A stretch of DNA of 64,000 nt, taken from NCBI GenBank assembly GCA_977018835.1, contig OZ361256.1, positions 4,898,001 to 4,962,000 of the forward strand, written 5' to 3'. Both the position numbers and the translations under genes were made by a program. This document shows positions 15,166-52,952 of the stretch, in pieces. The first letter of the stretch is position 1; each line of letters opens with the position of its first letter. Source of the DNA: Minutocellus sp. GHC0000111. Taxonomy: Eukaryota. Under the pieces are notes generated by a model. It did no database searches, had not been told where the DNA came from, and saw only the letters and a list, made by a program, of their open reading frames with translations.

Positions 15166-15279
15166 TGTTGACGATGCCGATGGGGTCGATTTGTAGGCAG
15201 TGAGTGCAGTGCGCAGGAAAACAAATAAATGAAAGTGAAAGTCAGAATGCGAGAATGCCGATAGCTCTACGTAGCTCAA

Positions 15280-17289
15280 TCGGGCCGTCGTTGACCTTAG
15301 CATCTGGAGAGAAACTCTGATTACGCGTAAGCTTTTCCACCTTCTGCTCCCTGGCGACTCTCTTGATCATGATGCGCCCATTGAAATCAACGTCTTTGGT
15401 TTCATCCTTCATTGGTCGGCCAACAACTCCAAGATGCACAACTTTGACAGGGTGTCTTCTGGATCGAATTTTCGGGCTTGCCTCGGAAGCATGGACAGAC
15501 GCGAGGTTCGGACTACTTAGTTCTTCGTCAGAAAGTGGCAACATCTTGATCTTTCGTCGCCGAGCAGCAGTGTAAAACCACTTTTCATCAAGATGCGCTA
15601 CAGGAATGTTGGGATCGGTCGTAATGTCCTCCCACTTTTCGATCCAATCAAGTCGCTTCCTGCAACATTCGGGGGTGAGCCTCGGCTTCTCGATCGACGA
15701 CTTCCATCTCCTTGCCGCCTTCTTGCTTTTTCCACCAGCGAAAAAGCTGAAGACGATGGAGACTAATTGTCAGCCTGTCTTCATCTGGAGCAGCTGATTT
15801 TGCGCTCACACAGTCAGCTAGCTCCTTAAAGGTTGCCATCGCACCCTTCATCCGAGCAGCATGCCGACACAGCTCGCGGAGATGTCCTGGCTCCTTCTCC
15901 TCGATCATGTCCGTGTGTGCCTTCCTTCCACGAACCGAACCTCCTTTCTGCCGATGGGATTGCTGATGCCATCAGCAAGGCTTTTGTAGAGCTGGTCTCT
16001 CCACTTGTAAAGCTGAGAACCACCGGTTGACTTGGCACAACCGTGATCGCACGCAACTTGCCGACACGCGGCAGTTGCAATTTGTTGCCGGTCTTCATGC
16101 GTGCGAGTTGGGTCGCCGCATCCCCACCAATCCGCGAGAGCCACGGCGCTGAACCGCATTCTTTCATTCGCCTGCTTTTCTTTTCTCTGATGATTGGCAT
16201 TGGTTCGGTGACGGTTGCATTGGGACGAGGAGGACGGAGCATGTCATCGTTGGCCATCCGAACAACAAAGTCGAGGCCGAGAGCGACCTTTGCCTGTTCA
16301 TCAATGTCACTGGAGGTGGCACAGACAACGGAAGTGTCGGCTCCTCCTAAACCTTCATCATTGGGGGAGGCTGCAGCTGCTTCAGTGGCGGAAGCATCAC
16401 CAGTTCCCTTTAGCATGCTGAGGAGACTTGCTGGCATCCAACCCAGTTTCTTGGCCTCGTCGACTAGTGATTTTACTCTTGCTTCGCAATGCGCTGACTG
16501 TGCACCTCCTTTCTGTGAGCTGACAACCTCTCACCTAGCTTAGCAGCTAAGACAGTCGAGCGCCCAGAGAACAGAACTTCATCGGGATTTCTTTTCTCGT
16601 GCACCTTCTGTCCCTCCGGTCCAGAGAATTTCGGGTGGTTGTCCTCCTTCTTTTTATGCAACCTGTGAGAGCACAAACACAAAGCGCCCTGCGTCTTGTC
16701 TTCCCTCTCGGCCGACACGTCGACAAGTGCAACTTCAAACTACAATGCTCCTTGAGATGTTGCTGCACATCCTTCCATTTTTCCTCGTTGTGCTGTAGCT
16801 CACACTTTCCTCCACCGACGGACTTGGAACGCAACAAGTCGGCCTCGATGAAAGCAGGGAGGACGTCTTCTTCCCATTTCTGCCGGCCGAGAGCCAACAC
16901 AAATGTCATCTTTGCCGCAGGAATCGGGGGTCACTCTCCACCACAGATCCTTACCAGCCCTTCGAATGACATCTGCTGCAAGGAGAAAGGCCATGGGGAC
17001 AGGAGGAGGGGCCGTCCTCTTCTTCGCCGACGACGGTGACGGTTTGGCGGGGGGGCGAATTTGACCGTGGCCGCTTCTTCGACGTGTTTGCGCTCGGCGA
17101 TGGTGTTTTCGGCTCAGCTGCCGCCTTTGCCGCCTTCCTGGATGCCTTGGTGTTGCCTCTCTTGCTCCCTGAGAACGAAGTTCTGCTGCTGCGTTTGTGT
17201 TTTTTGGGCGTGGTCTGGTTGGTCGTCGTCATCATCGTCACAAAATTTGCGGGTTGCGGTGAGGGTGTGCGGGGGACCAAAAAATGCAT
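15280..17289 (-). pseudogene. Tc1/mariner DD39D-like transposase, N-terminal half, frameshifted and truncated
   Basis: AHLDEKWFY (15572-15595) and KVVHLGVVGRP...FNGRI correspond to the plant-mariner HIDEKWFY and KVMFL...ARP...FDGKI motifs; the second and third Asp are missing. Confidence 0.8.
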
Positions 17290-17504: not shown

Positions 17505-17525
17505 CAAATCCTCTGAACCGAAAGG
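17505..17525. repeat. Right terminal inverted repeat of the Tc1/mariner-like element
   Basis: CAAATCCTCTGAACCGAAAGG followed by TA (17526-17527), upstream of the minus-strand transposase. Confidence 0.8.
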
Positions 17526-29386: not shown

Positions 29387-29487
29387 ATAGCTGCTGCAGG
29401 GCGGGCCCGCCAAAAAAACGCACGAAGCCAGACCACTCGACTGACTCCTCACTCGACTCGATCGACTCTCGAAAGCGGCAGACTTCA

Positions 29488-29683
29488 TGTTGAAACCGTG
29501 GGATACGTACGTACGTATACATACGTACGGTACGTACGGTGATCAGACCACTGACTCAGTGCCCTCTCCTGACCGTTGATCCATGGGCCAACGACATCTC
29601 CGATGGCCCATTTTTCATCTACGTAGGTCCTGTTAACCTCTACTAGCTATATCTATCTAGCTTAGCTTTAGGACCTCTTAGCA
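29488..29683 (+). repeat. 5' LTR
   Basis: Matches 35543-35738 with 3 mismatches in 196 bp. Confidence 0.97.
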
Positions 29684-29992
29684 GACCTACGTGATACATC
29701 TTTTCCACCCGTGCTCGCCCCATTTCGGTTCGCACCTCACCGGTTTGTCTTTTGGGTTTTCTCACTCGTCGTCACACGCAAGAAAAACCGACACATCTTC
29801 AATCGGCCAAAACGACCGTTTCTTTCGACAATATTGGAACGACGATCCAATCCCTTCCCCGAAAGTCCTGACCAGATCGACCCATCCAATCGATCACACT
29901 TCTCTGGATCGAACCTTCTGTCGATCACACGTCTCGCAGCAGCAACGCCGCCGTGCTGCCTGTCTTCGCTGCTGACTGACTGAAACACCAGC

Positions 29993-31287
29993 ATGAATCC
30001 CGACGCAGTTTTTGGCCAACCTCTCGGCGCAGCGCCGATTCTCCCCACCAAGTTAATCACACGTATGAATGACCCAGGACAACCTCCCCAACGCGAGCGT
30101 GTTGCCAAAGCGCTCAAGGAACTTCACAACAAGCGGCGGCCAGCACTGTTCTCCAGCAGGCAGGGTGCAATGACCACAACCTCGGCCATTTGGGCCTCGT
30201 CGTCAGCGATGCCGAACACACCACCAAAAGTAACGGCCGACCACATGTGCCTCCGGCAAATCCTGGCCCCAGCCCCACCATTCCCGCCGTGGCCAATCTA
30301 GACCAACAACGCGATTGTGCAATCCGGGGACGTTGCATCGAAAAGGGCCACTACAACTTGCACGAGCAAGTCAACACGGCGCTCAAGAATCTCCTCCTCG
30401 ACTCGATCGACGCCGTCTACATCAATCATCTCGAAGATGACATGCTCGGTTTCCAGCCAGTCACCATCCGCCAAATCATCGACAGCATTGCCGATCGCTG
30501 CTTGAAATTCAACGAGACTCAGAAGGAGGAATTAGAGAAGCAGCTCGAGAAGCAGCACGACGGGGGACCCATCGACACCCACATCGCCACATTCAACAAA
30601 GTCTTCAAGGCGTTTGAAACGGCCGGCGAACCCTTCACCAACAAGCAAAAGGTCTCCAAGTTCTGCCGCTCCGTGCGCAGGTTCTCATTGGCAAAGAAGG
30701 CATGCGAGGACTGGGACGACAGACCGGAGGCCGAACGCACGTGGGCCAACATGCAGTCGGACTTCCGCGATCGGTGTGATAAGAAGATGGCCAATGCCAC
30801 CACCGAAGCGGCAGGATATCATGGCGCGAATTTGGCCTCATCGGCCTCGGACGATCCATTTCTTTCTCGAGCCGATCTCCTTTTGGCTGACACCACCGAA
30901 GCCCTCAAGACCAACCAAGCCACGATGGCGATCCTCGCCAAAAAGAGCAACGAGAAGGATGACACCATTGCCAAACTTCGCCAAGAAATAGCTTCACTCA
31001 AGGCCGAGAACCGCGTTCTGCGTGAGGGACGCAACCATGCTGGTGGCAGTGGAGGCTGCCGCGGCGGTGGCCAGCAGAACGGCGCCGGCCACTTCCCAGG
31101 CCAAGGTCCTAACCTCAACCGCCAGGAGAAGCGGGAACTGCAGTCGATCCTCCCCAGAGGCCATTATTGCCACACGTGCGGCTATTCGTCCAACCACCCC
31201 AGCTTTGAATGCACTTGCAAAGGGCCCAACCACGTTGATAACGCCACCAAGTGCAATCCTTGCGGTGGTAGCTCGCGTCGTAACTGA
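29993..31287 (+). pseudogene. gag: Retrotransposon gag, frameshifted near 30130-30170
   Basis: GHLGLV motif, WxxxPEAERTWANMQ, C-terminal YCHTCGY...HPSFEC...H...AT..NP.GGS zinc-knuckle region. Confidence 0.85.
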
Positions 31288-34200
31288 GCGGGAGGGACGG
31301 TGGATATTAATCAGTATAAAATAGAGGACAGCATGTCTGAATCCACCTCCTCCCCGCCTTCGTTAGCTTTTCTTACGTCAAAAAGCAAACCTCCAACTCA
31401 AGAGCCAATCTTCCTCGCAGCAGACACTGGAACGACGGGACATTTTGTCCAGAAGCCCCAACACCCATCGTGCGATGGCCCTATTTTCAACGTCCAACAG
31501 ACAGCAATTCCTATCAGCGTCACCCTTCCGGATAACAGCACAATGACGAACACCCACGAGGCCACGCTTCGCCTCCCTGGGGTTTCCCCATCGGCTAGCA
31601 AGGCCTATATTTTCAACAACATGGCATCATCGCTCCTATCGATTGGGCAGCTGTGTGACGATGGATGCATTGCCACTTTCGATAAGGATTCGGTAGTCAT
31701 CGCCAAGGACAATGCCGTCATTTTGCAAGGTAAACGAGACCCCTCAACGAAATTGTGGATGGTAGATCTTAATTGCTCGCCCACCATGTCGCCGCTCCCC
31801 GGCCCCAACGTCATCCAACATGCTGCCAACGCCGCAATTGCCCAGGAGACGGTTCCGGAACGTGTAGCCTTTTTACATTGGTGCGCTGGCAGTCCTCAGC
31901 TATCTACCTGGTGCAAAGCAATCGATGCGGGATTTTATAGATCTTGGCCAGGCCTCACATCAAAGCTTGTACGTAAGCACATGCCACAGTCGATACCGAT
32001 GATTAAAGGTCACTTAGACCAGCAGCGCAAGAACATCAGGTCGACCAAGCCCAAACGGTCGATGGCTACGCCAAAATCTCTCCCTGGGGTGGACGAAACC
32101 GAGCAGGATCTCCACCCGGCACAACACCAACAGCGCACCAACTATGTCTTTGCTGATTGTCATGACATAACGGGCCAGATCTTCTCAGATCAGCCCGGCC
32201 GTTTCTTGGTATCGTCTATTTCTGGCCACCAGCACATAATGGTCGTCTATGACTATGACTCCAACAGCATCTTGGCCGAACCAAGGAAAAGCCGATCGGG
32301 AACGGAAATGCGCCGAGCGTACCAAACTATTTTCGAATACCTCTCCAAGCGAGGATTTCGCCCAAAATTGCAACGATTGGATAATGAAGTGAGTCGAGAG
32401 CTGAAGGAGTTCATGGAAGAAAAGGATGTAGATTTTCAATTGACCCCAACGCACTCCCACCGCCGAAATGCGGCCGAACGAGCCATTCGAACCTTTAAGA
32501 ATCATTTCATTGCGATTCTCTGTGGTGCCGATCCCGACTTTCCCCTCATCTTGTGGGATAAATTGCTGGAGCAGGCGGTAATGACCCTCAATTTCCTGAG
32601 AGCATCCCGAGTCAACCCTCGACTATCAGCGTACGAGCAACTCAATGGCGGCTTTGATTTCAATCGCACGCCTCTCGGCCCCCTCGGATGCAAGGTCATC
32701 TTTCACGAGATGCCCTCGGCACGCGGCTCTTGGTCCCCGCATGGCGTTGATGGGTACTATGTCGGTCCAGCCATGGAACACTACCGGTGTTACAAGGTTT
32801 GGATTGAGGAAACTCGGGTGGAACGCACTGGTAACACACTCGTCTGGCTCCCCAAAATGATTCCGGTGCCCAAAACGTCGTCGGCCGATGCAGCAATAGT
32901 CGCAGCTCATGAACTCCTGCACGCTCTACAGAATCCACATCCAGCGGCACCCCTTGCTCCCCTTCGAGACGAGCATCGTCAAGCTTTAGAAAAGCTCTCC
33001 GAGATTTTCAACAGCGTGACCCCAGCAGAATCTGCCACCTCCGCCTCTGATGAGACGATGCAGACAACCGCAGCTCCGAGGGTGCTGGAGAACGATGACG
33101 ACTCCCAACGATTCCGCCTCGGTACCATCGTCGCCAAAGTGTTTGGAGATCGCAATTACAAGGGTAGAGTCGTTGCATTTGACAAGAAGTATAAGTACTA
33201 CAAAATCAAATACGAGGACGACGACGTAGAAGAGATGAACGAGACTGAAGTAGGCCGTCACCTTGTCTCCAACCCCAACGCTCCGTTACCTCAGCCCCAG
33301 CAACCTCCGAGGGTGGCAAAATCCTCCACATGTGATGCAGCCACCACTAAAAGCCGTCGATCACGTCGATCCAACGCGCCACCTCGCTCGTCCGTTTCTT
33401 CCAACTACTACAATCCTTTGGCTGCAGCAGACGAGCCCAACGGCGACGATGATGATAATCATGACGACGATGCAACCGTCGTAACATCCAATCAAAGTTC
33501 CAATGCCCCCACCTCCCGTCGGCAACGTAAACGCAAGTCTCCAACGATCGATACCACTCCAACATTACCAGCTCCAGCAAAATCGACAAGCAAGTCCAAA
33601 CCATCGACCGCCAAACCACCTCGACGACGATCATGCCGTCAGCGAGGGTACATTCCACATCGGAACCCTCCCCCACGGCCATCATCTCGTCGTAGCACCC
33701 ACCACGTGGCCAACATGGCAGCTTTCTCGCCTTTACCAAACCTCCAACACTTTGCTAACGCCGTCGTCCATCCCGATACTGGTGCAATGCTTGAACACCG
33801 CGACCTCCTCAAAACGAACATGAGGGACCAATTCATTCAAGCAAACATCGATGAAATTGGACGGCTAACGGACGGCCGAGTTGGAAACAGTGCTAGCATT
33901 CCCTCCAATACAATGGCTTTCGTCCACTGGTCCGAACTGCCTCGGGGAAAAAAGCCACATACCTCCGCATTGTCGCCGACTATCGCTCCCATAAACCAAA
34001 TCCCAATCGAGTTCGATGGACTGCAGGAGGCGACAAAATTCATCACCCTGGTACAGTCTCGACCCCGACCGCTGAAATGTTGACTGCAAAGTTACTTTTC
34101 AACAGCGTCATCTCTACAGACAACGCTCGTTTCATGGGAATTGACATCAGTGACTTCTATCTCAGTAGCACCATGCCAGAGCCAGAATGGATGTGGGCGC

Positions 34201-35494
34201 CAGTAGCTCTCATCCCCGACGAAGTCATGGAAGCCTACGACCTCCACGACAAAGTAAAGAATGGTCGAGCATTGGTCAGAATCGATGGCGGAATGCATGG
34301 ATTACCCCAGGCAGGGCGCCTAGCCTACGATCAACTTGTCAAGCATCTCAAACCCCATGGCTATTTCCCTTGCAAGCTTGCTGCCGGCCTTTGGAGGCAC
34401 AAAATCCGCCCAATTACCTTTTGCCTAACCGTTGACGATTTTGGAGCAAAGCATGTCTCGGGAAAGAGCATGCAGACCATCTCATTCAGGCCCTCAACTC
34501 CAAGTATGAGATCACTGCCGATTGGGAAGGCCGACTTTATTGTGGCATTCAACTCGAGTGGAACTACGAGGCCAAATGGGTGGATCTATCTGTGCCTAAC
34601 TACGTCAAGGAGATGCGCCACAAGTTCCAACACGACCGCCCCTCACGGCCCGAGCATGCGCCACATCGATGGAATCGTCCGACGCATGGCCCGGGACCCC
34701 AGATGCCAGAACCGGAAGACGACTCACCACCACTCGACGCCAAAGGCATCAACGAAATTCAACAGGTGGTGGGCAGCTCCTTGCACTGTGGTCGAGCAAT
34801 TGATTCAACAATTTCACCGGCGCTCAATGGCATCTCAGCGGAACAATCCAAAGCTACCGAGCGCACTCGACAAGATGCCAAGAAGCTTCTAGATTACCTT
34901 GCAACCCATCCCGACGCAGTCATTCGATGCGTCAAGTCAGACATGATCCCACATGCACATGGCGACGCCTCCTGCTTGTCAGCCCCGAAATCAAGAAGCA
35001 AGCTCGGAGGGTGCTTCTACCTAAGCTCCCGACCTAAGGACCCGCACCGCCAGCCTGACTCAAGTGATCCCATGCCACCAATGAATGGAGCCATCCTCGT
35101 CAATGCCAATGTCATCAAGCATGTAATGTCCTCAGCCAGCCGCTGAAGCCGAATTGGGAGGATTGTTTTTCAACATGAAAGAAAGATGCATGCAGCACCA
35201 ATCCGGGCAGCACTAGAAGAAATGGGTCACCCGCAGCCCCCTACTGCTATCGTCGTTGACAACTCTACAGCATCTGGAATCGCCAATAAAACCGTCAAGC
35301 AAAGACGGTCTAAGGCCATGGACATGAGATTCCACTGGGTCCAAGATCGCACAGAGCAACGACAACTCCATCCAGGTGTGCCTAGGCACTGGAGGAAAGG
35401 AGCGCAAAATTTGGCCGATTATTTTACAAAGCACCATCCCGCCCGCTACCATGTCGACATGCGACCAGTCTACTTACATGTAGATTCCAATTAG
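31288..35494 (+). pseudogene. pol: Retrotransposon pol (PR-IN-Tudor-RT-RNaseH) with several frameshifts (about 33950, 34460, 35140-35190)
   Basis: ADTGTTGHF; SDQPGRF, LDNE, NAAERAIRTFKNHF; GIDISDFYL, GLPQAG, VDDFG; DAS, EAELGG, DNSTA, ADYFTK. Confidence 0.93.
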
Positions 35495-35542
35495 GACTCT
35501 ACATGTAGATTCAATGGCACTAGTCATTGATCTGCGAGGGTG

Positions 35543-35738
35543 TGTTGATGCCGTGGGATACGTACGTACGTATACATACGTACGGTACGTACGGTGATCA
35601 GACCACTGACTCAGTGCCCTCTCCTGACCGTTGATCCATGGGCCAACGACATCTCCGATGGCCCATTTTTCATCTACGTAGGTCCTATTAACCTCTACTA
35701 GCTATATCTATCTAGCTTAGCTTTAGGACCTCTTAGCA
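35543..35738 (+). repeat. 3' LTR
   Basis: Copy of 29488-29683, followed by TSD CTTCA. Confidence 0.97.
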
Positions 35739-35866
35739 CTTCAGTCAGTCAGCCATGCCAAGCGGGATCTGCAGAACTACATGTACCGGTACTGCAGATC
35801 TAAACACATGTACAGCCAGGTTCTACATCAAGTACACATTGTAATACTCTAAAAATAAGATTCACC

Positions 35867-37884
35867 CTATGTTTTTCTCTTGGGTGGCAAGCTCTTTCCT
35901 CTCTGCCTCACGGTGCTTCTCGTGACACTACCGGTAGGAACTCTATGTACGCCTCCACTGTTACCGGTGCTCAGCAAACTCCTTGAACTTTCATCTGGGC
36001 TCAAACATTTCAAGTTCATTTTCTTTGCGGCCAATTGAATCTCCTTGGGCTGTTGGGCAAACCACCCTCGAAGAGCAATTCGAGCATCTTGAGCTGGTAA
36101 CACATCGTCCAAAAGATGTGCACTAGTATCACCACCAGCCTTCTCATTGTCCGCATTACAAAGGAGGTAGCGAGTCAAAACCTGGCAAGCATCCTCCTTG
36201 CTGCCTTCTCGCTTCCCACCAAAGCCTGCAATGTGAAGTGAAAGCCGAATCTGCCTCAATTCCGAGGAAGGTAGCGAACAGAATACTCTTTCGAAAGGAC
36301 TCTGCTCCTCAAGGCTGGCGCCAAAATCACAAACAAGACAGCGCAGAAGCTCAATGGCTCCATGTGATCGCCAGCGCCTTGATGATTCTTCGAGGGGACG
36401 CCGCACGCTCGGAGCAAGCCAGGAAGGTTTCGATCGCAATCATCAGAGGTCCCCAAAAGGAGTAAGGTAATGTCAGCGTCTACAAAGTTTGGCGGTACCC
36501 CATCGGTGTACTTCCCATCGACATAGGATCGAAACTTTGCCAGTCGATTTGCTCTTTCCTTGCCTTTGTGAAAGTTATCTCCTCGCGGATCGAGCGCTCT
36601 TAGAACCTTCAAGATTTTGTGGCGGTTCGGGTTGGCTTCTTGCGATGGCGATATTTCAATAACTGGGACTTCCTCAATCGGTGGCGGCGACGGGGATGTC
36701 TCCAGTTCACGGAGTTTGATAAGCTCTTCAGCACTAAATGTAAGGCTGGATTGTCGTCGCCCCAGTCGCAGAACACGCTTGGAGTCTTCTGTCGTGGTAG
36801 ACACCATCGATGGCCGCCGACTTAATTGTTCAAAGGCAATAGAGTCATCGTCTTCGTCAATGTCCTTTCTGGGCATATCTGCATCTTCGCTGCCAATTCT
36901 GTCATTCTCGTTCGACAAAGCGGACGGCGGCGCAAAGATAATTCCGGCCTTCTCCATGATTGTTTGGGTGTCTACATAGACATAATACATCAGCCGAGCC
37001 GTCAAAGCCAGGGCCGCGAGGTGAACAATTGGTCGATCAGAAACCTTGGACGTTATGCTGACAATCAGCAATATCATCATGGCATATAAGCTCCCGACGA
37101 AAGTCTTGAAGCCATGATACCTTTGCAATCCCGTCCCGGCAAAGAATATCTCCAATGCGTCGTCCCGTTCCATTCCCAGGGCGGTTCGACCGTACATCGT
37201 GACTAAACTGAATGTGAAAATGCAGTGAAGACCACATATTATGCCGATAGAGCCTGAAACCAAAAAAATAAATCATACCAGCACCTCCAGGTATCGACCC
37301 TGATAAAACAGGTCGATGATATCGCCAGGGTGATAGGAATCAAAGACTGCCACGAGGGTACCGGCTGTGACTGCGGAAACCACGGCATAAACCTCCAGGC
37401 CATCCAAGCGAACCTGCTTTCGGTCAAGTCCATCTGCGTGAGGGACGTTTGGTGGAGAATCATCACCATCGAGCAACTCTGATATTGCATCGTCGTTGCC
37501 ATTTGCATCTGAAAATTTGCTCGGTCGCATTCTTTCCTGTTGCGCCGACATGACGGCGACGGACATTTTGTCCACAGTGTTCTCCAAGCGACATATCGTG
37601 ACATTGTTGGAATCGACCGCCGAACTGAGCTTCTGAACTGCCGCGGAGAGCTGGCGGATGGCTTCCATCTGCTCCGCGGCAATAGTCACATCACTCGTGG
37701 AGGATGTGCCGTTGTGCTGGGCATTCCTGTTCTGGTTTGTGTTCGACCCATGGATGAGGGATGGGTCTTGTTGCATTTGTGCGACACCGATGAGGTGCTC
37801 GATGAAGTGTTGGCCCTGCTTCTCATGCTGTTGGTCAGCAGAAGAGGTTGGCTCGGCCTGGTTGGCTTCGTAGCTAATCGGCAT
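35867..37884 (-). pseudogene. Multi-pass membrane protein of unknown function, with in-frame TGA (37273-37275) and downstream frameshifts near 36350-36470
   Basis: ORFs 37273-37884 and 36256-37263 are in the same frame with hydrophobic helices continuing across the stop; the C-terminal part switches frames. Confidence 0.6.
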
Positions 37885-38327
37885 GGCACGACGAGACTAC
37901 TCTAGCTAGTCTAGAGTAGGCTACAGATGTGCAACTGAACCTGCTGCAGGAAGGGAGCCCTGTGGCTGGCATGGTCCTCAGCCTGACGCCTGACTTCGCT
38001 CAAGCGTCATGCTCGTCAAAAAAGACCCGAGGGGGGTACTTCGAGGTTGCAGCACAAGTGCGAGAATAATTGGTCGCCCAGACTGAGTTTTCATGTCGAG
38101 GTTTGTCGAGGTTGGTAGATCTACCTCTTCAAGATTGCAAGATGACAATTCGATAAAATTTACGCAGATTTTATTTATGTATATACATGTATCGCGGCAG
38201 GTATCGAAAGAGGTCTTCAGGGGGCAAGGTTAGGGTTTAAATCTACAGTACATTGAAGCCACCAAAGCTGCACTTCGATCGGTGGCAACACGCATTGTAA
38301 TCGCATGTGTCTCCTTCCTCTCAATAT

Positions 38328-39353
38328 CTAGCTAGCACACGGATACAAGTCGGTAATAGCGCACCTCTCTTCTCGGGTTAGGTCTGGGTGCCATAGATCG
38401 ACTATCAGTACCACACGGCAATCCATGCCATCCTTATCATTCCATTGTTCACTCAATGCGTCGTCCCCAAACGTCACAGAATGAACAATCGAGTCATCAA
38501 ATACAAAGCATTTTCCTTCCTTCCAAGTTGCCCTTTCCTCTGCGACACAGAGTTGTGGTGCTTCCACCCCCTCTTTCCCCGTTGGTACTTGCAATGGAAA
38601 ATGAAGTCGATGACGAACATTCGAGGGTCCGCAATGAGGATCGATGACGGTGCCTGGATGAAGAACTGATACAAAGACGTTGCCAAAGATGCACCCATCC
38701 ATTATCTTTCCGTCTCCTAAAGATCTCAACACCTCCATGGTCTTGGGACACAATGTAACATTTGACTTTACCCATTCCCCTTGATTCATTAGATGCAGGA
38801 CTTGCCATGTCCCCGTTGCCACATCGTTCTCCAAAGCGCTTGCCGACGAAGAACTTAAAGCCTCGATGTATTCGTTCCATAAAACATTTCTGCCGACATT
38901 ATGGAGCACATTGCAGGCATCTTGGTGCAGTTCGGTGACAAAGGGGCAGGATAACAATCCTCTCACAAGCAATACGTTTGGTCTTTGCCTTTGCACAGGT
39001 GATATATCTTCGGCACGGCGGCTTTCATCGTCATCCGTCGCAACATCCGGCCCAGCAATTATGGCGTGTCGTATTCTTTGCAGCGCCTCTCCCTTTGCTA
39101 CATACGGCAAACGCCTTTGAGCCGATCGATTCAATTCAGCATATCTGCTGCATCGTGCACAGTTTGGGTTTGGACATTTGGTGATCTTGTACTCTTGGTT
39201 GTCATCGGTGCCGCCACTTTTGGAGAATGGTTGAAGCCAGACGAGCATGCTCGTTGCGACCAAAATTGAAGCAACGACGCTGATGAGGAAGGGTTGGTTT
39301 ATCAGGAGAGGGTAAAGGTCGTGGATGGCCTCCAAGATACTGCTGGTCATCAT
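38328..39353 (-). CDS. Aspartyl/asparaginyl beta-hydroxylase domain protein with N-terminal anchor
   Basis: LHPGTVIDPHCGP...RLHFPL, WKEGKCFVFDDSIVHSV, RVVLIVDLWHPDL. Confidence 0.92.
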   Translation of the reverse strand: MMTSSILEAIHDLYPLLINQPFLISVVASILVATSMLVWLQPFSKSGGTDDNQEYKITKCPNPNCARCSRYAELNRSAQRRLPYVAKGEALQRIRHAIIAGPDVATDDDESRRAEDISPVQRQRPNVLLVRGLLSCPFVTELHQDACNVLHNVGRNVLWNEYIEALSSSSASALENDVATGTWQVLHLMNQGEWVKSNVTLCPKTMEVLRSLGDGKIMDGCIFGNVFVSVLHPGTVIDPHCGPSNVRHRLHFPLQVPTGKEGVEAPQLCVAEERATWKEGKCFVFDDSIVHSVTFGDDALSEQWNDKDGMDCRVVLIVDLWHPDLTREERCAITDLYPCAS

Positions 39354-39812
39354 GTTACAAATCCTTCACTCAGCCACACATCATCTTGAAATCTTGCTCC
39401 CCACTCGCCATGCGTCACTCGCTCGGCGCCCTGCGGTGGTGGTGGCTGGTGGCTGGTGGCTGCGGTGGCTGAAGAATGAGGCGGCTTGCGATAAAATATG
39501 GTGGGAATCGAGGAATCGAATCCGGGACCCCCCCCCTTACTTACGATGCTCACTGCTTACTGCTTAGGCCTACTGGGCCCCAGTACGAGTACCTAGGTAC
39601 ATGTATCAGCAGAGAACAAGTTATCAACGGAGTGCTATTGCTTGTTCCATCGTATTAGTCTGCATTTCGCCCAGATTGTGCCGGATACGACTATATTTCG
39701 TCAGGAAAGAGCGCCGGCCGCGAAGGTTGAGGCCGTGCCGTTTTGCGTTGAGCGGCTTGATTGCTTGATTTTTTAGGCTGGCATTCCAGCATCCCCTGTG
39801 AGCCTGTGAACC

Positions 39813-40910
39813 ATGATGAGAGCAATTCGATGCCACCGCTTCGCTGCTCTCGATTCCAGCGGGCGGATTCTAAAAGATGTCTCGGCCTATTCTCCCCTCA
39901 GGTCAGTGTTGGCCGTTGAGCATGTTCCTCGGCCGCTCATCGAACGACCAAATGATGTTCTCATCGCAACTCATTATGCTGGCGTTCAATATCCAGATGC
40001 GTTGCAGGCGCAGGGGCTTTATCAGCATCGACCTCCCCTGCCGTATGTTCCAGGGCTAGATGTGTCTGGGACGGTGCTTGAGGTTGGAAGTCGGGTGTCA
40101 ACTTTCCGGGTCGGTGATCGGGTGATTGCTCAGGCTCCGCTGGATCTTGGATGTTTGGCGGATGTCGTTCGAGTTGACGCGAACGATGTGTATCATGCGC
40201 CAGACAACATCGCCTTGTCTCGGTTGGCCAACATTGGCCGCAATTATTTTGCATCGTATCATTCGCTCAAGGTCATCGGTAATGTCAAAAGGGGAGATCT
40301 CGTCCTGGTTGATGGAGCGTCGGGAGGAGTAGGAATGGCAACGATTGAGCTTGCCAAGGCAATGGGAGCCACGGTCGTTGCTGGTGTGAGCTCGAAAGAA
40401 AAGGCTCAATACCCAAAGGATGTTGGAGCAGACGCCGTCCTATGCTATGGTCGAGACAAGGAAAGCTACAAGAACTTCAAGAAGAATGAATTTCGGAAAG
40501 TGTCGAAAGAACTGGGGCACCCTCAAGGAGCCGATGATGTGGTCGATGTAGTCCAGGGCGGACTCTTTGAAGATGCACTCATGTCCTGCGTAAAGCCGTT
40601 AGGAACAATATCCTTGGTTGGCTTTACCGCTGGCCAAAAGCCGATTAGGCCAGGCCTTGTCCTTATCAAAGAAGCCAAGATTGTTGGCAGTCTCTGGGGT
40701 CGATGGGCAAGAGAGAATCCGGAAGGTCATCGTCAAAATGTCCAAGAGATGCTGAATTTTATGGAATCGGGCGCCATTAGACCCAGGGCCGACAGAATAT
40801 TTTCCGTTGAGGATGCCATCGAGGCCTTTGAGTTGTTTGAATCTAACAAAGGTCGAGGGAATACGGTCGTTGATTTTACAACTGGCCGGGATCCAAGATC
40901 GAGGCTGTAA
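39813..40910 (+). CDS. NADPH:quinone oxidoreductase (zeta-crystallin/MDR family), probably peroxisomal
   Basis: [30 protein letters not shown]-terminal SRL is a PTS1 signal. Confidence 0.92.
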
Positions 40911-41014
40911 ATTTAGCAGAGTAGAGACACATATTAGATATTCAACCATATCAAGACTTAATTTTAAGTTAAGCTCCATTGCTAGCTAGCACTAGACTAG
41001 CTAGTAGATCTAGA

Positions 41015-44000
41015 CTAGAGGCCGCCAGGAGGAGGCCACTCCCAGACGCTCTTGTTAGTCTTGGTGTCAAAGAAATACCAGCGTTTCTGTGACTTGGACC
41101 AAACACACATCCATCCTTGTGGTAAATTGATGGCCGGCTTGACACTTGGATTTTGTAGATCAACAGCAGCGGGCTCGGGGGTCGACGACGTCGCTGCTCC
41201 TGCTGCCATTTTGCTATCTGATGGCCGCTTTTCGAGACCGGGACGTGGTACTGGGGACGCTCCTTGAGCTGCATTCATCTTTCCATCGGACGGCCGCTTC
41301 TCCAAACCAGGTCGAGGAGGCGGGGGTCGCTTCTGTTGCTGGTTGTCGGCCATTGAGGGGGGTGCAGGCTTCGCCCTTTCCCCTGAAGACAATGGGGGAG
41401 GAGGTCTCTTCTTGGACTCGGTCGGTGGTGGAGCTGCAGGTGACGATGGGGAGTTCTCTTGTGCCGACGGTGACGGAGAGGGTGTTTTGAATGCCACAGC
41501 TCCCTCCAAATCACCATCTCCGGCCAGTATTTCCGTCGAAGATGCCCTCTTCACACGCTTCGACCGAGGGGTGAGCTTGGGCAGTCCACCGAGCTTGTGC
41601 TTGCGATCATCTGCATGGTGAGGAGATCTTCTCGAGATGCCAGCAAACGCTGCTTCGCCTTCTCCTTCTACAGGAGAGGAATATCCCCCATCGTGTGGAG
41701 GAGATCCCGGTGGTGATACATCAGGCGTCTCATGATGAAGAGGAGGGCGCTGGCTGGAGAAATCCTCGGGAATGAGCGAATCCCCTCTTCTGTCTTTGTA
41801 GGGGTTGCCAAAGTTGATCATCAGGCGTGTCTTGACTCTCGTTTGCACAGAATCGACGAACTCTCCCGTTTTGGGGTCAAAGAATGTTGTGGGCAATGCA
41901 TCATCGTCGACACTCCAGTTCGGGGAACCATCTGGTGCGGTTGTGGCCGCAGAACCGGTAGAATCATTACAACCATAACCGACGACGGGCTTCCGACTCC
42001 AAAGCAATCGCTCGCGATAGTCGCCCATCTCACTGATTTTGGACTTGTTGAGCATGGAGGCCCCCACACCGCAAAGAGATATAAGTGACTCATCGTCAAT
42101 AGAGTGATTTGCTTCGTAGTAATGACAGTTTCCACCATCATTGTTTACCCCTTCGACCGACAATCCTCGTGTTGTGAGTCCAGAACCACCAAAGATCCAT
42201 CTCCTTCTGGATTCAAAATAAGCAAGTAGGCATTCCGCTGGAAGATCTCCCAGAGATTCGGTAGCTGGGGGTGGAGTGCTTCTACCGATGAATTTCTCGT
42301 CATCTTTTCCATTTTCATCGCCATCTCCATTCCCACCGCCACCCTTCTTCTTTGCCTTGGCAGCACCGGCTCTCCAAGGTGGTGGCATGTTTCGCAATGC
42401 CGCCAGATAACTATGCACAGATGCCCTGGGATCGTACTGACCATATCCAATTACTGGTGCCGCCGCAGCGTCAAGGCCCTGGCGTCTGCCATCGTGGTTG
42501 TGAGTCTCAATTTGCTGGACGCCTCGGCGACGGAGCTCGGCCTCCTGGCGTTCGAGCCTTTCGTTGGTTTCACGTGCCACCTTTTCGCCCTGGCGAATCT
42601 TTTGAAGACAAGAACGAGAGAAGCACTGCGCTGCGATGCTTTCGTAGCTATCGGTACTTAGAAGTGATTGTGCCGAGGATGGAAGAATAGGACGAAGGCA
42701 ACGTCGGAGAGCATGTTGATAATAGGGTGGAATGCGAAAGAGATATGCTCGGAAATCAGATCGCCATTGCTCATCCAGGGGTACATTCCGAGAAGTAACG
42801 GTGCTGGAACTTTGCTGTTGCTTCTTGATGAATCCAGCCGTAGAACCTCCCTTGGCAGCAGCAGAACTGGACGCTGCAGCCTCCTTTGATTGGACTGATT
42901 TCTTCAGTTGCATGTTCTCCAACTCGGCAGCACGAACCAAGAGCGGCAGCAGTATGTGAGGCTCTGGTGGTAGGAGCGTGATGGATGATAGAGCACCACC
43001 AGATTCCGATGAGAATTCTCCAGCCGATTGGTCCGATAAAGCGACTCTATTGTGGGGTAGGTGCAATATCCCAATGTTGAGCACATTTGAATTGTCGTCC
43101 TCTGATAGGCCAGTCGACCCGCACCACGCACAGATACCAGAAAGTGCTCATGGCCGCGTTGAGACTTGGGAGCGACGCCGCCCCTCTTGCCATCCTTGCT
43201 GATCCAATCGCAAACGTAGACATCCCTGGACAGCAGCTTAAGCGAGGCTTGCATCTGACTCGATGCGTTGGCGTCGGCGAGCAATTGCTTGTTGGAAGTG
43301 ACCAACTGATCCAATCTATGGAGCAAATTCATGACTTCGAGAGGGTCAAAGGTGTTGAGAGTACCCACGTGGTGCTGCGGATGTCGAGAGAAGGTCAACA
43401 CCGGCTGTCCTGTCCTCGGCGGTAGTGTATCCAGCTTCTTGTCGGGAAAGAAAGACTCTGGGATGCAAAAGATTGGTGCAGCATAAATCTGCGCTTCGTT
43501 GGCGGTATCGGTCCTCGAGGGCACGTGCAGCAGTAAAGCTCTATGCATGGATGTTTCGCCGCCCTCAAGCTGCTGGAACGAGCAGACAGGCCCGGCGTTC
43601 ACAAAGACGCCAGATACGTTCATAGACCCCTCCGCCTGCTCTTCCGAAGTAGGAGGAGCCATGGAAGGGTGGCGGAGCGGATTCGGTATTGGCATCTTCT
43701 GGGGCAGAGATGGAGCGATAATTTGAAGCAGCCGTTCCGATACTTGCGATAGGGCCGACGAGGACTGAATCGAGGTGTAGCAGCCACCCGTCACCTCACA
43801 GAATGCCTGAAGGGACGGATGGAGGGAACGCGAGGCGTTGCTTCCAACTCCAACGCAAAATATCCTCTGATCCCAGCGGAATGGCTCGCGGTAGAAGTCC
43901 CTAAGTGGGGCGCTACCAAATTGAAGTTGCAGATTCCCACCACCCTCGGTGGGTGGCTTCCGCAGGCACTCTCCGTCCGTGAGAAGTACCAGACAAGCCG

Positions 44001-44733
44001 GTTGCAGAGCATACGTTGCCGTCGCCTTTTGCTTGTTGGCGCCGCCTGCTTGCTGTCCCTTCCCCGCCGCAGCTGCAGCCGAGGCCGAAAGCATGGTGCT
44101 TGAGGGCAATCTTCCCATGCCAAAGTTCTCGGTCGCACGATTTTTTAGCCTGTATCGCGACAAAAGTTGCAGGCCCGTGGATAGGGCGGCATTCAATCCA
44201 ACCGCTCCACCGCCATCCTCTGGGAAGGGCCGTCTCTTGGGCTGCTGCTGCGGCTGCCCTCCCACGGCACTCGCTGCAGGAGGGGCATCGGCAGCCGTCG
44301 GCGTCGGAGACCAATCCGTGGCACGAAGCCTCTTGAGCTCCCGCTCAAACTCCCCGTGGTTGATGCTGAACGATGGCTGCTGGTGCAGATCCTGCGCCGT
44401 TTCCGCTTCGCCGTGATAGTCGCCGGCGAACCCCACCAGCAACCGACCCCCCGCCCCACAGGCCGCCAGGGCCAGCTGCTGCGCGTACTGCCGCCCGGTC
44501 GATAGCAGAAGGAACTGGTCCTTGGAGCAGTATCCCAGGCCGAGGTTGTGCAGCGACTGCTGCGCCGTTGGCTTCTCCTGCTGGAACTCCCGGTTGTGTG
44601 CTTGGACGCGCTGGTCCAGACCCTTGGATAATTTTTCCACCATCATCTTGCCAAGGTCCAATTTGCTCATTCCACCGCCGCCGACCTTTTCCGCCATGGA
44701 CGGCGACGTATCAACGACGAACACCACAATCAT
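41015..44733 (-). CDS. INTS6: Integrator complex subunit 6-like (vWA) with C-terminal WW domain; 1-nt frameshift near 43112
   Basis: FVVDTSPSM, ENFGMGR, LLTDG, EPFRWDQR, CEVTGG, PESFF, IPPYY, FGNPYK; LPQGW...YFFDTKTNKSVWEWP. Confidence 0.85.
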
Positions 44734-45093
44734 GGTGGACAAGCCAAGACGTAGCTAGGCAGCAAGATACGCCGGAGGGGAAGCGGAACTGGAAACTGGA
44801 AATGAGCACAGCAGCTGGCATGGCGGCATGGCATGATGGCGATGGCGCGATGCATGGCGCATGCATGCATCGCGCCATCGCATCGTCCTTGAAATCGGAA
44901 GCCACTAACTTTTGAAAATAGTGCTTTGCAAGCCGGCTCATTTTCGATTTCCGCGCCATTTCCCCGCTCCCCGCCCCGTTGTATCGGCGCCGAGCGAAGC
45001 CTCCTGCCGAAGTTTCAAAGTCAGCCGCGCTCGCTCGGTGCTGAGGCAGGTCAGCAGTAATACTAACTTTCCCTCCCTTGGTGCATTGCCGGC

Positions 45094-48000
45094 ATGTCCT
45101 CCCAAGCCAGTGGTGCCGGCAGTAGCAGCGCAATCGCGTCGCCCCTTGGCGATGGTGGCGATAGCGGCAGTCACCCTCCTCTCCACCAGACTCTGCCAGA
45201 TGGCCACGGCTCGTGGGGAGAAAGTCGCAGGCACGATGGAAGCGCCTCGAGTGGCCGCAAGAGCGATGGTCAGGGCAACAGCAGTATGGGCACGCCGGCG
45301 AATTCTTCCGAACGAAAGAGATTGTTCCAGTCTCCCTGTCCTTCCAATGCCAGTGGCAACGCGTCTCAATCATCTCCCATGGTCCAAAGGAAGGATATTC
45401 CCAGCCATGACAAAAATAATGACGATGATGATGGTGGTGATTTTGATGATGAAGAGCCCATGTTATCCATCCTCAACGTTGTGGTCGATCATGTCATGGT
45501 ACCTCCTACGCCTATGGAACCGGAAGAATTTGACATATTTTGTCGGCAGAGACGGCACGAATTGAAGAAGCAGGAAGCAGAGGAGGGACGAAGGAAACTG
45601 AAGGAGGAGGACTCCAAGGTTAATTCAAGTGCGGCGGATGAGGCTGGTGGTCATCGTGGTGGTGATGATGAACCAATGTTGTTCCCACTCTCGCAGCAGT
45701 CTGTGCGGTCGGATCCATCGACTCCTGGATTCGGCGGCGCTTTGGCATCTGCAGAACAATCACAATCATTCCTGGAACAAACTCCTACGGTGCCAAAAGA
45801 GAAAGTTTTGGTCCCCGTCCTTCGATTCTTTGGCCCTGTCATACGAGGAGATCCTGCAACTGTGCGGGCCACCCCCCGTCAGTCGGGGTGTTTGCATGTG
45901 CATGGTGCCTTCCCATATTTGGTAGCGAGGCCAGTGACAGCAGGTCCAGATGGGAGCTCGTATCGAAGGCCGGGCGATTCCAGCAGGGCGTCCGTATCAT
46001 CTCGGATCGATTGGGATGACGCCGAGTCTGTTTCCTACATTGTGGATGAGATCCATGTCAAGCTCGAAGCGGCTCTCCGAGCTACCGACGAATGGAAAGA
46101 AAAGCGTGATACCATGGACGGAGGGGGTGCCAATAGTTCCACCAACAACGCCGGGGGTAATAATGGCGATGGTTTGGGTGGCAATTTGGATTCACTGAAA
46201 CTGCCCATTCGTTATATTCGGCAAGTGACTGTCGTCAAGGGAAAAGGCTGGCAAGTGACTGTCGTCAAGGGAAAAGGCTTCTACTCCTACTGCTCTGGAC
46301 CGCCAGCTCCATTTCTTCGGGTCGAGTACTATGATCCCAAATCGAAGTGGAAGGTCAAGCTCATGCTAGAGAGGGGGCTTGATGTAGATGAGGTATACCA
46401 CCCCGATGGTCGTTTCTATGACTATGGGGGGGATGATTCGGAAAATGCTGCTGCTAAAGACGATGTCGGCAACAATGACGAGGATGGAGAAGGCGAAGTT
46501 TATGGCGAGGGGGGAATGCGCCAATCATCTCCGCCTCTAAAATTTCGCTGTTATGAGGCGCACATCCCTTTCACTATGCAAGTGTTCAAAGACCTGAACC
46601 TGTCCGGAACGTCCTACATTAAGGTGAAGAGGGGTATGTTTCGCCAATCGCTGCCAAAGAAGGAACGAAAGAGGGTACAGAGTTCAAATGTTGATGAAGG
46701 TGGCAACGAGAGACTATTTCTCGAGGGCAATGTTTCGGATCGATTTCAATGGGGGGAACCATCCGTTACTGATATCAATGCCACTCCATGCAATCCAAGT
46801 GCTGAAGGCCTTGGTAGCGATGACACCTAATATTGTTCATACTCTTTTGTTGGTCTCCGTCGTGAGGATCAATTCTGGACCACGAAGGAAAGTTTGTGTG
46901 ATGTAGAGCTCGACGCAAGTAGTACGGAACTATTGAATGTTCGAGATGTGATGACGAGCTTACCAGATGATCCCGCTGAGCGAGCACGGGTACATTGGAG
47001 GGCCGTGCCTAGTCTGCGGGAGATTTGGGAGCTAGAGCGAAGACGAATGGCATCTCTTCTTAGCAAGGAAGATAATTTTCTGAACTCGGCGCCAGACGAT
47101 GAGGAAGAGGGCGTAACTACCCTTCAATCGGCTGTGAAGGACGGTCCTTCTCTTCCCGGATCTCGACTCGCCGTGCGGGGTAGTAAGCGCCTTTATGACC
47201 CAAGTCCTGGTCTTGAAGATGATTATCGGCGAGCGCTTGGTAATATTGCAACGAGGCACTCAAATTTTGTGCAGCGAGTGGATAGTGCTTTCAAAGGTGA
47301 TGGGCCAGCAGTCTTCTCTCCAAAGACACAGGCACAGACAGACAGCTTGGGCTTGTCAACCCCTTCGTCGTCGCAAGATGAGGCCCTTGCCGCTCTCAAC
47401 GCTCTCGGCGAACAATTTGGCGGTGATTTCGAGCAAATTAATCTGCGATCTCAAGTGGTGGCTCAAGCTTCCCAGCTTTTATCTCTATCACCCCAAACTC
47501 CTAACAGCCGATTGAATGGGGGCTCTCTTCGCAGCTCTCCCCTCAGCCAGGTAGCTCCGCTAGCACAAGCAGACATCGAGGAAATACAGGAAGCTACAGC
47601 ATTTGGACATAGTCTAGAGCGTGGAGAGTCTGTACTGGGAGATTTAACTGCTGGGTCGTCATCCGTGGATCCATTTACGTTGACGCCGCATGAAAATGAA
47701 TACGATAGTGATGAGGATGTTTTTCACGAAGAAGAAAAGCTCGGTGAAGAGGGGTTTGCGCGATCCTTGAGATCCGGGTGGGGGTGAAGCCATCGAAATT
47801 CTAGAACGCGGAGTTTTGTTTACCCCGGTTGAAGCTGAGATCGTCGGAAACGCAAGTGAGGACATCAATCGATTTGTTCGTAAATCTCTTGGGATCAGTA
47901 TAGATCGGGCCAAGGTAGAAATGCTCCGAAGTGAACGCCAGCTTCTCCTTCGACTAGCTTCAATTGTCAAGTACAAAGATCCAGATGCGCTTATGTCATG

Positions 48001-51000
48001 GGATACTCAAGGGGCTGGACTGGGTTATCTCATCGAACGAGGTGTAGCAATTGCAAAAGGTCCGGCTACTTCAAATAATGGAGATGCCAACGAGAATAAT
48101 GCCCCCAGAAGAGGGAAAGAAATCGATATGGTGAAATTACTTGGGAGAATCATTAAAAAGACTACCACCTCGTCGTCATCATCGTTGGTCCCCCATGAGC
48201 AGCAGCAGGAAGGTGGAGAGAATGGTAATGAGTGGAGCGGTAGTGGCTTAGGCTCTGACTGGGACGAGCGCGTTGGTGCCGGTGCTGCAGCTGCGTCCAT
48301 TGTAAGTGTTTGCTTGTTTATTTCCGCTTAAAAATATATTGCTGTCCATCCTCCTTTTACCTAGGTATGTCATCTTACCTCACCCAACTCACACTCTCAT
48401 AATAATTTGTTGTTTTGGATTGTCACCAATTGTAGGAAGGAAGATTGGTGATATGCGGATGGAAAATGATTGCAGAGGAAGTGAAGCATCCCAATTCATC
48501 CTATCTGCCAGCCATGGTGGCGACAATTCGCAGCAAGAGGATACCTCATCACGACGATCTCATTCTTACCCGATGGTATAGCTCCGAGGGCGGGAGACAT
48601 CGTCGCCGAGTCCTTGAGCATAGACTCGCCCAGGCCAGTGCTACCCTTCTTCTCTTTGATGCGCTTGATATTATTGGACGCGCTGGTGAAGCCGCGCGAC
48701 TAAGTGGAGTTGAATTCAGTCAGAGCTTGCCCGGAATCCGCGGGTCTCAATACAAGGTCGAAGGATGTCTCTTGCGTGCCCTTCAAAGTGTATGGTCAGA
48801 CGAGAGAGGAGAGAAACGGGGAAAGAACAAGGTCAAAACGTCTTCAACTTCGACACAGGCACAGCAAAGTCACTTTAGTAAAAATTCAGCTTCCCTAAGC
48901 AACGAGTCCTCTTCCCAGAAAGAAAGCCCATGGAAACTTCAGCGTGGTCTTGTCTCTCGTAACGTTGCCGCCAAATTTCCAAATGGACCCCATGTCGCCT
49001 CACAACAAACAACCCAATCTAGTGTTGTCGACCACTCTGATAGAGGCTACTTCTTCTTCTCTCCTTCGAAAGATGACTGCACCAATCAAGAGGCTCTGGA
49101 ATGTCAAGCAATGACCCTCGGTGAGTGGCGATATCTAGTGCTGGCATGGCGTATGTAGTTTTTTGCTTTCTCAAATTTATTTCATCTACTGCTTCTCTTA
49201 TCGCGCTTCTCTACTATTCAATCAATTCTCGATTCATTTGTCACGCCCTTCATAGAACCCCAAAGTGGATTTCACTTTGATCCAATTGTCGTCTGTGATT
49301 TCACCGCTCTTTATCCATCTCTCGTTATTGCCTACAATCTGTGCTATTCGAGCTGTGCCGGGAAGTTGGACTATCATTCAACACGCCAGGAAATGCAACG
49401 CGAGGGTCAAACCACAGGCCGCATAGGCCCGTTTCAATACGCAGAGAGAAGAACCGCTTCCGTCATCAACCATCACATGAAGTCAATATCATCAAGCTCA
49501 AAGGTCGGCAAGAAGGATAAGGACAGAGCATACGTAATACCCACCGGATCACTATTTGTCTCGGAGACAGTCGTCAAGGGCGTTCTACCTCAAGTCCTCG
49601 ATGAAATCCTCGCAACGCGAGCAATGTTGAAGCGAGCAGCAAAGACGTACAAAATGAGCGCAAAGAATGTTCCTCCTTCCGTTCTACGAAGCCTTGAGGC
49701 CAAACAGCTTGCCGTAAGATGGCTGATATCATTTTTTTTTATGCTCGTCAATTTTTTTTTTTTTTTTTTTTTTTTTGGCAGCTGCTCGAAACTCATAGAA
49801 CTCCCTTCCCCTACTACCCCCTTTCTTGCTTTCTTCTTACCGTCCCACCCACAGCTAAAGTATGTGGCCAATGTCTCCTACGGCTATACCTCGGCGACAT
49901 TTTCAGGACGCTCCGCAATGCCGTTACTGGCCGATGCCATCGTTGAGTGCGGCCGGCGCACTTTGACAAATGCCATCGAACTCGCCAATAGCTGGGGTCG
50001 AAAGGAAAACGGCCGGTGGAAGGGAGCTCATGTGGTCTACGGCGACACAGACTCGGTCTTTATCAAACTTCCCAACCGATCTGTGGAGGAGGCGTTTGCA
50101 TTCGGTGAGCAATTTTGTAAGGCTGTCACTGCAGCCAATCCGCCTCCCGTTCAGATCAAGCTCGAAAAGGTTTACGTTGCAAGTCTTCTCCAGACTAAGA
50201 AAAAATACTGCGGTATGAAGTATGAATCACCGAATGACAAGCGCCCAGTCTTTGAAGCGAAAGGAATTGAGACTGTCCGGCGGGATCAGTGCGCATTGAC
50301 GCAAAAGGTGTTGAGGAATGCTCTTATATCTGTTTTTCAGAATGGGCTGACTGGTAATCTCGAGTCGACCAGGGCATATTTGCAACGCCAATGGGCTCTT
50401 ATCCACGCCGGAAGACTTCCCGTATCTGATTATATATTGACAGGAAGGGTGAGAAGTCACTACAGAGGAGGAAAGATTGGGCCTGTGCAGGCTGCGCTCG
50501 CGAGGCGCTTGGCGGAGGCCGATCCGGGTCGAACGGTTCGGCATAAGGAAAGAATACCATATGTCATTGTTGCTGCGCCCGGCCTTAATTTCAAGCTGCG
50601 GGACTGTGTCCTCACTCCCACCGAGTGCCTCGAACAGTGGGATGCCCACACAATTCATGCTGCGTATTACATAAAGAAACATGTCAATGCCGCCCTGCAA
50701 CGATGCTTTGGTCTTCCACCGTTCAGAGTCGACATCAATGCTTGGTACGAAGCCGCGCCTAAGCCAAGGAAGCGCATCCACCATTGGCCTGTGACAAGAA
50801 CCGGGGCCAGTGCGATGATTACAGCCCACTTTGGTAGTGATTCCTGTGCTTTGTGCGGGGCCAAGTGCAAGGCCAAGGGAAGTGCTCGGGCCGTCGTGTG
50901 TGCCAAATGCAGCCAGGATAAAGTTTCAGCGGCATTCCTTGGGATGGGACGTCTGAATGCCGCCGAAGAAGATGCCGATGCTGTTGCCAGGGTGTGTGCT

Positions 51001-51288
51001 ATATGCAATGGCTGCCCCGAATCTTCTTCTACATTTGCAATGGACAAGATTTCCTCAGCGAACGATTCGAACAGGGGCGGTTCGGGGAGAGGAAAATCAT
51101 CCACTACTGGGAGTAATAGCGGGCTTGGTGGCCTTTTCCGCAAGTCCGCCGCTAAAGTTTCCACCGGCGTCGTGACTCCTCTCGCAGCATGTGTATGCAT
51201 CGACTGTCCCATTACATATGAGAGGCATCGGCTTCGAGAGGCCCAGATCGAAGCAGAAGCATTGTGCAAAGCAATAGACATACTGTAG
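45094..51288 (+). pseudogene. REV3: DNA polymerase zeta catalytic subunit, disrupted; introns 48302-48435, 49121-49255, 49714-49854
   Basis: CLHVHGAFPY, YEAHIPF, IRGSQYKVE, DFTALYPS, KYVANVSYGYT...SGR, YGDTDS, KKKYCG, AKGIETVRRD, C-terminal Cys clusters; in-frame TAA at 46828-46830 and frame break near 47770. Confidence 0.9.
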
Positions 51289-51355
51289 AGATGGAGGACA
51301 GTAGACAAACAACAAAATGAGTCGATTTTATTCGTATTTCAGTTGGAGTAAGCAT

Positions 51356-52750: not shown

Positions 52751-52952
52751 TGCTCTTCACTTTCCAGGTGTTTCCAAGAGTAAGCTACAAACTACAGCTG
52801 CAACTACAGGTCAGGGATCAAGTGTCACTCCGTTGAGGTGCAATTCTATTGAGCCCGAGGATGTTATAGTTTGTTGATGCTATTTTAGAATTTTGGATCG
52901 AAACCGTAGCTTGAGAAAACAGTAGATCTAACCCTTTTACCAAATTGATATC

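Follow-up and report, generated by a model that had tools for sequence, protein, structure and literature searches.

The window (the whole stretch of 64,000 nucleotides that was analysed) carries at 29488-35738 a complete and young LTR retrotransposon of the copia type, in the order gag, protease, integrase, Tudor domain, reverse transcriptase and RNase H. Relics of two other repeat families and a single-copy host region were compared with it. The features are as follows.

1729..3350, minus strand: multi-copy repeat relic, earlier called RAG-like (ends approximate); TpA rho 0.27
15275..17200, minus strand: truncated mariner-like transposase relic (ends approximate); RTAY makes up 0 of 24 surviving TA
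29483..29487, plus strand: 5' target-site duplication, sequence CTTCA; the same 5 bp are found again at 35739-35743
29488..29683, plus strand: 5' LTR, 196 nt, TG...CA, with 10 RTAY sites kept
29991..31287, plus strand: gag, with a frameshift near its start, TpA-depleted (rho 0.27; RTAY is 2 of 16 surviving TA)
31288..33300, plus strand: protease, integrase and PTM/DIR17-like Tudor domain (PF21743); integrase hit less, Tyr kept 13/15
33801..35494, plus strand: reverse transcriptase (RVT_2) and RNase H, with frameshifts near 33950, 34460 and 35135-35185
35543..35738, plus strand: 3' LTR; TA retained at 35687 where the 5' LTR has TG
35739..35743, plus strand: 3' target-site duplication CTTCA
35900..55800, no strand assigned: single-copy host region used as control, with no TpA excess among its polymorphisms

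All of the Ty1/copia features were present (LTRs, target duplication, the order protease-integrase-reverse transcriptase-RNase H, and the RVT_2 domain). The CoDi Ty1/copia elements of diatoms, as characterized in the accessible part of PMC2806351, likewise have TG...CA LTRs, a 5-bp target duplication and the order gag-PR-INT-RT-RH; unlike them, the element here has the PF21743 Tudor domain after the integrase. This domain (33120-33260) showed a 46% match to the host gene at 10447-13916, in which a PF21743 Tudor domain occurs together with PHD and CXXC fingers; the domain common to both is possibly a chromatin-targeting module or a capture. The nearest named homologues of the element were Cyclotella proteins; no relatives of pol were found in the viral collection, and an exact DNA pattern search of the JGI metagenomes returned 0 stretches.

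The LTR pair was mismatched at 3 of 196 positions (7, 8 and 145). A contig of run X5 connects 29481 to 35754 with the whole element absent, and because this empty-site allele exists the insertion is polymorphic and young. Read depth was in the thousands over the element versus ~100 in the flanking DNA, which is not a copy number; the gag protein cluster had 71 members, and 14 gag sibling proteins showed mixtures of Tyr, His and Cys (Y/H/C). The RNase H, gag and kinase ORFs of the window were recorded together on one contig of 2,909,337 bases, and the long contigs that bear cluster members recur; we take them to be further loci of this assembly. Within 31285-31335 the gag stop is TGA and pol runs on in the identical frame; the codon corresponding to the first Met of pol in the relatives is GTG in the window. 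Many insertions of 1-8 nt, often tandem duplications, produce frameshifts at 29750-30310, 35133 and 35182; several are common to part of the family, and by eye they had no evident tie to TA sites. RNA libraries from two studies contained contigs of the family with TA>TG/CA variants of their own, such contigs not being proof of transcription.

The mariner-like relic gave no Pfam hit, and the PDB comparison gave it no name; its relative P0070 has DD39D spacing, as counted by eye. For the repeat at 1729-3350 there was no Pfam hit and no relevant PDB hit, and RAG-like is used as a candidate label; its TPKWH...E..H motif may resemble that of RAG1/Transib-like proteins. Terminal inverted repeats of the two relics were looked for and not found. 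The first-pass annotation had reported no Tyr in 306 residues of the mariner-like pieces and 1 in 189 of the RAG-like ORF; these counts were near to those obtained here, 1 Tyr in 409 residues (taken over three stop-to-stop pieces) and 1 in 222, respectively. Raw low Tyr content was set aside as weak evidence, host ORFs spanning 0.9 to 3.8%. At 840-990 on the minus strand lies the C-terminal end of a mariner-like transposase that is distinct from the 15-17 kb relic. A scan for mariner-like loci yielded 24 loci of 27-71% identity, too distant for base-level comparison.

Codon changes in pol and their polarity

Nine codons at which copia motifs appeared to carry the TG or CA version of a TA-containing codon had been pointed out in the first-pass annotation, along with one LTR mismatch (CCTATT/CCTGTT), and all were read in the sequence as claimed. 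When three intact relatives were taken as reference for pol, giving 857 conserved columns, the window copy deviated at 56, and 28 of these were single TA>TG/CA changes; from 34044 on, TpA transitions made up 20 of 25 conserved-column changes, and no RTAY sites remained in 34601-35494. Conserved Tyr was lost at 15 of 43 positions in the window element, every one to His or Cys.

Seven of the codon changes are derived, because sister families keep Tyr or Val and siblings vary Y/H/C at the same codons: YPG>HPG (34044), DDFGV>DDFGA (34446), KY>KH (34452), LYY>LHC (34784-9), IRY>IRC (34928), DASY>DASC (34973) and GGYF>GGCF (35012). The LYY motif, for one, read variously LCY, LCH, LHY, LYH, LHC, LCC or LYY in sibling copies. 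At the two other codons the residue belongs to the family consensus and does not represent a change in this copy: WTA (34023) is a family residue, present in both of the covering siblings as well as in P0006 and P0138, two intact relatives, and GMHG (34296) was inherited from the family progenitor, being found in 6/6 siblings although the Tyr of GMYG is present in 42 of 45 homologues having the motif. GMHG and PHG are fixed in 6/6 siblings, and a few hits were therefore inherited. Reversed polarity, with His/Cys ancestral, was ruled out, as the outgroups have Tyr.

Substitution spectrum, flanking bases and the single-copy control

Substitutions were counted in a codon-aware manner over 118 sibling-copy proteins (12 copia, 39 mariner-like and 67 "RAG-like") and the three window copies; such a count detects solely amino-acid-changing hits within called ORFs. 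P0114, P0120 and P0235 (likely duplicates) and P0179 (short contig) were removed, no column could be assigned to three mariner-like proteins, and columns that were near-fixed or had no outgroup were excluded. The clusters were listed in part (15 of up to 275 members), and the counts that follow are for the listed copies of the three families.

A>G changes were found at TpA in 566 of 2169 cells and in other A contexts in 48 of 11550 (AA 21/3143, CA 25/3424, GA 2/4983), a 63-fold excess for the TA context. Per site, 74 of 110 TA adenines were hit versus 24 of 572 other A>G sites (Fisher p 5e-50). The strands were alike (sense 291/1125, antisense 275/1044), in full agreement with the original suggestion of A>G at 5'-TA on either strand. 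C>T of the RIP type was not in evidence (CG 25/3395, CH 19/9699), and transversions stood at 174/52298. The fraction of TA adenines changed was 17-29% per family, a partial state. Among 41 mariner-like proteins Tyr was lost in 254 of 397 cells (131 His, 121 Cys, 2 other), and in 6 copia siblings in 55 of 103; the intact short-contig relatives had lost 0/46 and 0/215. CpG decay was rejected, as was GC-biased conversion, for which no context is expected. Also rejected was 6mA at ApT as a trigger, TAC (220/734) being hit like TAT (264/776) with GA and CA near zero.

An error-prone polymerase or repair patch in transposon heterochromatin that puts G opposite T at TpA would act at the DNA level and symmetrically on the strands with no need for a new enzyme class, and short tandem duplications are common in the element. 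Errors of the Pol eta type, however, fall on WA and so on AA as well, whereas AA was 39-fold below TA in the listed copies, and transversions and other transitions were near background; we consider a patch of this kind unlikely.

The bases flanking TA had a marked influence on A>G in the listed copies: RTAY was changed in 380 of 938 cells (41%; 38/39 sites), YTAY in 104/572 and RTAR in 82/475 (both ~18%), and YTAR in 0/184 cells and 0/11 sites. The rate was 0.32 for TAY vs 0.12 for TAR, and TAG was the lowest trinucleotide (12/257). Nucleotide variants of the element agreed, with 17 RTAY, 10 YTAY, 1 RTAR and 0 YTAR among the best 40 of 194 rows. Surviving RTAY accounted for 0/24 TA in the mariner-like ORF and 0/21 in RNase H, versus 211/698 in single-copy DNA, and a map of RTAY in 500-base bins marked all three relics. 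The four-base ranking RTAY > YTAY/RTAR > YTAR is new here.

That the flank rule is near-symmetric over the duplex would suit a lesion on thymine, where T at TpA within transposon chromatin would be enzymatically altered, as by oxidation to 5-hydroxymethyl- or 5-formyluracil, and the product would mispair with G; as TA is palindromic, the print left by such a lesion would be identical. Oxidised thymines serve as genomic marks in some protists; we know of no thymine oxidase with a strict TpA preference, and judge a thymine lesion improbable.

The first-pass annotation had described the effect as patchy, with Tyr kept across the integrase. Integrase Tyr was kept at 13/15 positions vs 15/29 elsewhere (p 0.045), as judged from the window and from siblings P0089 and P0093, which have hits within the integrase. 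The observation stands, and part of it is context, many integrase Tyr codons lying in the weaker YTAY, because p rises to 0.07 when RTAY codons are taken alone. The LTRs, unlike the integrase, are a real exception to the hypermutation: each kept 9-10 RTAY sites and there was one certain TA hit, perhaps with a second at LTR position 8 (p 1e-4 at a 50% site rate, p 0.03 at 30%).

Element ends at 29488-29683, 35543-35738 and 17400-17700 were TA-rich with RTAY kept (TpA rho 1.0-1.7), and the interiors were stripped. Upstream of a trypsin-like gene, 25001-25500 (within tract 24900-25500) had 0 RTAY vs 31 RTGY/RCAY, like the mutated relics; this tract had no match among the compared proteins, the loci or the remaining window, and is possibly a further hit repeat. 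RTAY was low too (1 vs 24) at 37501-38000, inside a host-like ORF.

Transitions in the TA context were 28 of 33 in the element variants (best 40 of 194 rows) and 8 of 28 in single-copy 35900-55800 (best 40 of 393 rows), the latter being at chance (expected 0.21, p 0.23); the Fisher p of 2e-5 for this difference compares best-supported subsets of rows, called at unequal thresholds (1% share for the element and 20% for the control). Element rows 30591 and 31467 were opposite-strand hits on TA already changed in the window, and would give 30/33. Over all places, Ts/Tv was 7.6-9.1 for the element vs 1.8-2.0 for single-copy DNA. The spectrum of the element was thus absent from unique sequence in the one 19.9-kb region compared. 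In the host kinase exon Tyr was kept in 98/98 cells across 14 close homologues, the gene being under selection; a second long-contig copy of this ABC1-type kinase exon (P0242, 96.7%), which may be the other allele, had 12 differences and 0 of the TpA type. Small presence/absence polymorphisms (about 120-530 nt) at 39514-39789 and 51877-52412 within the control region are perhaps short mobile elements. The gene at 45067-51288 is presumably, from its motifs, similar to the catalytic subunit of DNA polymerase zeta; its position near the element is probably a coincidence.

An explanation by neutral decay of the ordinary kind, by residues specific to the family or by errors of assembly could draw on WTA and GMHG, which are family-level, and on the low TpA of the genome as a whole (rho 0.58). 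The 63-fold context bias, the replacement of Tyr by His or Cys in 252 of 254 mariner-like losses, the recurrence of the element's contig variants in four runs from four studies, and the negative single-copy control speak against it; we regard this entire group of explanations as extremely improbable.

Timing and origin of the changes

Copies having both His and Cys numbered 9/13, 30/31 and 48/51 in the three families. His-versus-Cys agreement between copies was at the level of within-column shuffles (p 0.16, 0.31, 0.37), and Arg, for which a codon already without its TA would have to be hit again, occurred in 1 of 1036 cells. Full Y/H/C agreement across copies was more variable than in shuffles (p 0-0.015), which fits unequal copy loads and could include some shared ancestry, a point against the independence of all hits. 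From comparison of the sequences, most hits look independent between copies. Because the His/Cys choice looks independent and most copies have both residues, we infer that the hits were acquired at the DNA level by copies already inserted.

If the changes had come from ADAR-type RNA editing or reverse-transcriptase error and been fixed upon retrotransposition, then the fixed GMHG and PHG, which mark some changes that went through a round of transposition, would be accounted for; a 5' U is favoured by ADAR, according to the accessible text of 10.64898/2026.01.13.699255. The mariner-like DNA transposon, however, was hit as hard as the retroelement (Tyr lost 254/397), both strands were hit within single copies (30/31 mariner-like copies), and one LTR has a change absent from the other LTR. 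TAG, moreover, is the optimum of ADAR and was the weakest trinucleotide here (12/257). This origin is very unlikely, and the earlier view that the change is in DNA and not in RNA is upheld by the DNA-transposon copies and by the hits on both strands. RNA editing and neutral decay are for practical purposes excluded, and we have high confidence that the pattern is real, DNA-level and repeat-restricted.

The most likely source of the TpA A:T>G:C changes is a DNA adenine deaminase of the host, which would be directed to mobile DNA that is silenced, a reading to which we give about even credence. Adenine at TpA would be deaminated to hypoxanthine, which would pair with C and be fixed at replication; targeting would be by a chromatin or small-RNA mark, not by duplication as such, and hits would build up over many generations. 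Conserved Tyr, Ile, Val, Thr and Met codons would be lost and the elements crippled, and stop codons could not arise.

The strict TpA context and single substitution type favour such a deaminase. In the accessible portion of PMC12528748, engineered variants of the TadA/ADAT2 family likewise make A>G changes in DNA, and ABE8e-YA ranks YAY > YAR, resembling TAY > TAR here; ABE8e-YA also accepts CA, whereas the hits here are at TA only, with CA spared and C>T at background. The natural DNA-editing ADAT2 of amphioxus (BjADAT2), from what is given in the accessible part of PMC10354150, differs in preferring GAA/TCG and hairpin loops and in editing C as well. Several properties of the data also weigh against a deaminase: with a palindromic TA, A>G after T is indistinguishable from T>C before A; the adenines of both strands were about equally hit in mixed sites (YTAY 104/572, RTAR 82/475), which is more like duplex recognition than the action of a deaminase on single strands; and both LTRs keep their 9-10 RTAY sites. 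A defence role is plausible but leaky, because the family has been inserting until recently, and GMHG was present even in its progenitor.

Related systems and significance

A preprint by Mettrop et al. (bioRxiv 10.64898/2026.01.13.699255) deals with Bigelowiella natans, in which integrated DNA of NCLDV and virophages undergoes TpA>TpG/CpA hypermutation. According to its accessible text, the change was measured de novo in mutation-accumulation lines, at about 1000-fold the genome rate and in some lines only; a single-copy region was hit too, RT and DDE Pfams were among the TpA-poor genes, and ADAT2/3 was proposed as candidate enzyme. The statement in the first-pass annotation that no named pathway exists is therefore outdated, and the identical change arising de novo in DNA favours a host DNA process here. 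The process in the window is a real variant of this just-described, mechanistically open hypermutation. As in B. natans (again from the accessible text), the substitution and dinucleotide are the same, both strands are affected, and the change is at the DNA level and confined to foreign or mobile DNA. Unlike B. natans, which belongs to Rhizaria, the organism here is likely a diatom, judging by the Cyclotella homologues of the element and by the gene content, and so of another supergroup; the targets here are multi-copy retrotransposons and DNA transposons, hit copy by copy, and there large viral inserts; and the rate there was measured directly whereas here the process is inferred from standing copies. 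In its main text the preprint names TpA alone and no RTAY > mixed > YTAR ranking, although its Fig. 2B or Table S2 may show flanks. A search of open-licence PMC and bioRxiv found no paper on TpA hypermutation in diatoms.

Fungal RIP resembles the present process in that transitions at particular dinucleotides affect repeats on both strands, with single-copy DNA spared; RIP, however, changes C:G>T:A, generating TpA and stops, whereas TpA is removed here. It also has a homology trigger, premeiotic timing in the sexual cycle and dependence on RID/DIM-2.

The finding extends an observation from a one-species preprint to another eukaryotic supergroup and to transposons of the ordinary kind, with copy-level evidence that the process acts on the DNA of elements already inserted. 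From the partial state of the families comes the four-base target rule, an enzyme fingerprint. TpA hypermutation will bias LTR dating, the building of transposable-element consensus sequences and GC content in diatom genomes. A natural A-to-G enzyme acting on chromosomal DNA would matter for genome defence and for base editing. We can suggest only tentatively an ancient, SAR-wide defence, possible though doubtful, in which diatoms and chlorarachniophytes would share a natural adenine editor of double-stranded DNA that is directed to transposons and viruses under silencing and rewrites the RTAY palindrome; if true, this would be a natural means of A-to-G editing in duplex DNA and a counterpart, for adenine, of RIP/APOBEC.
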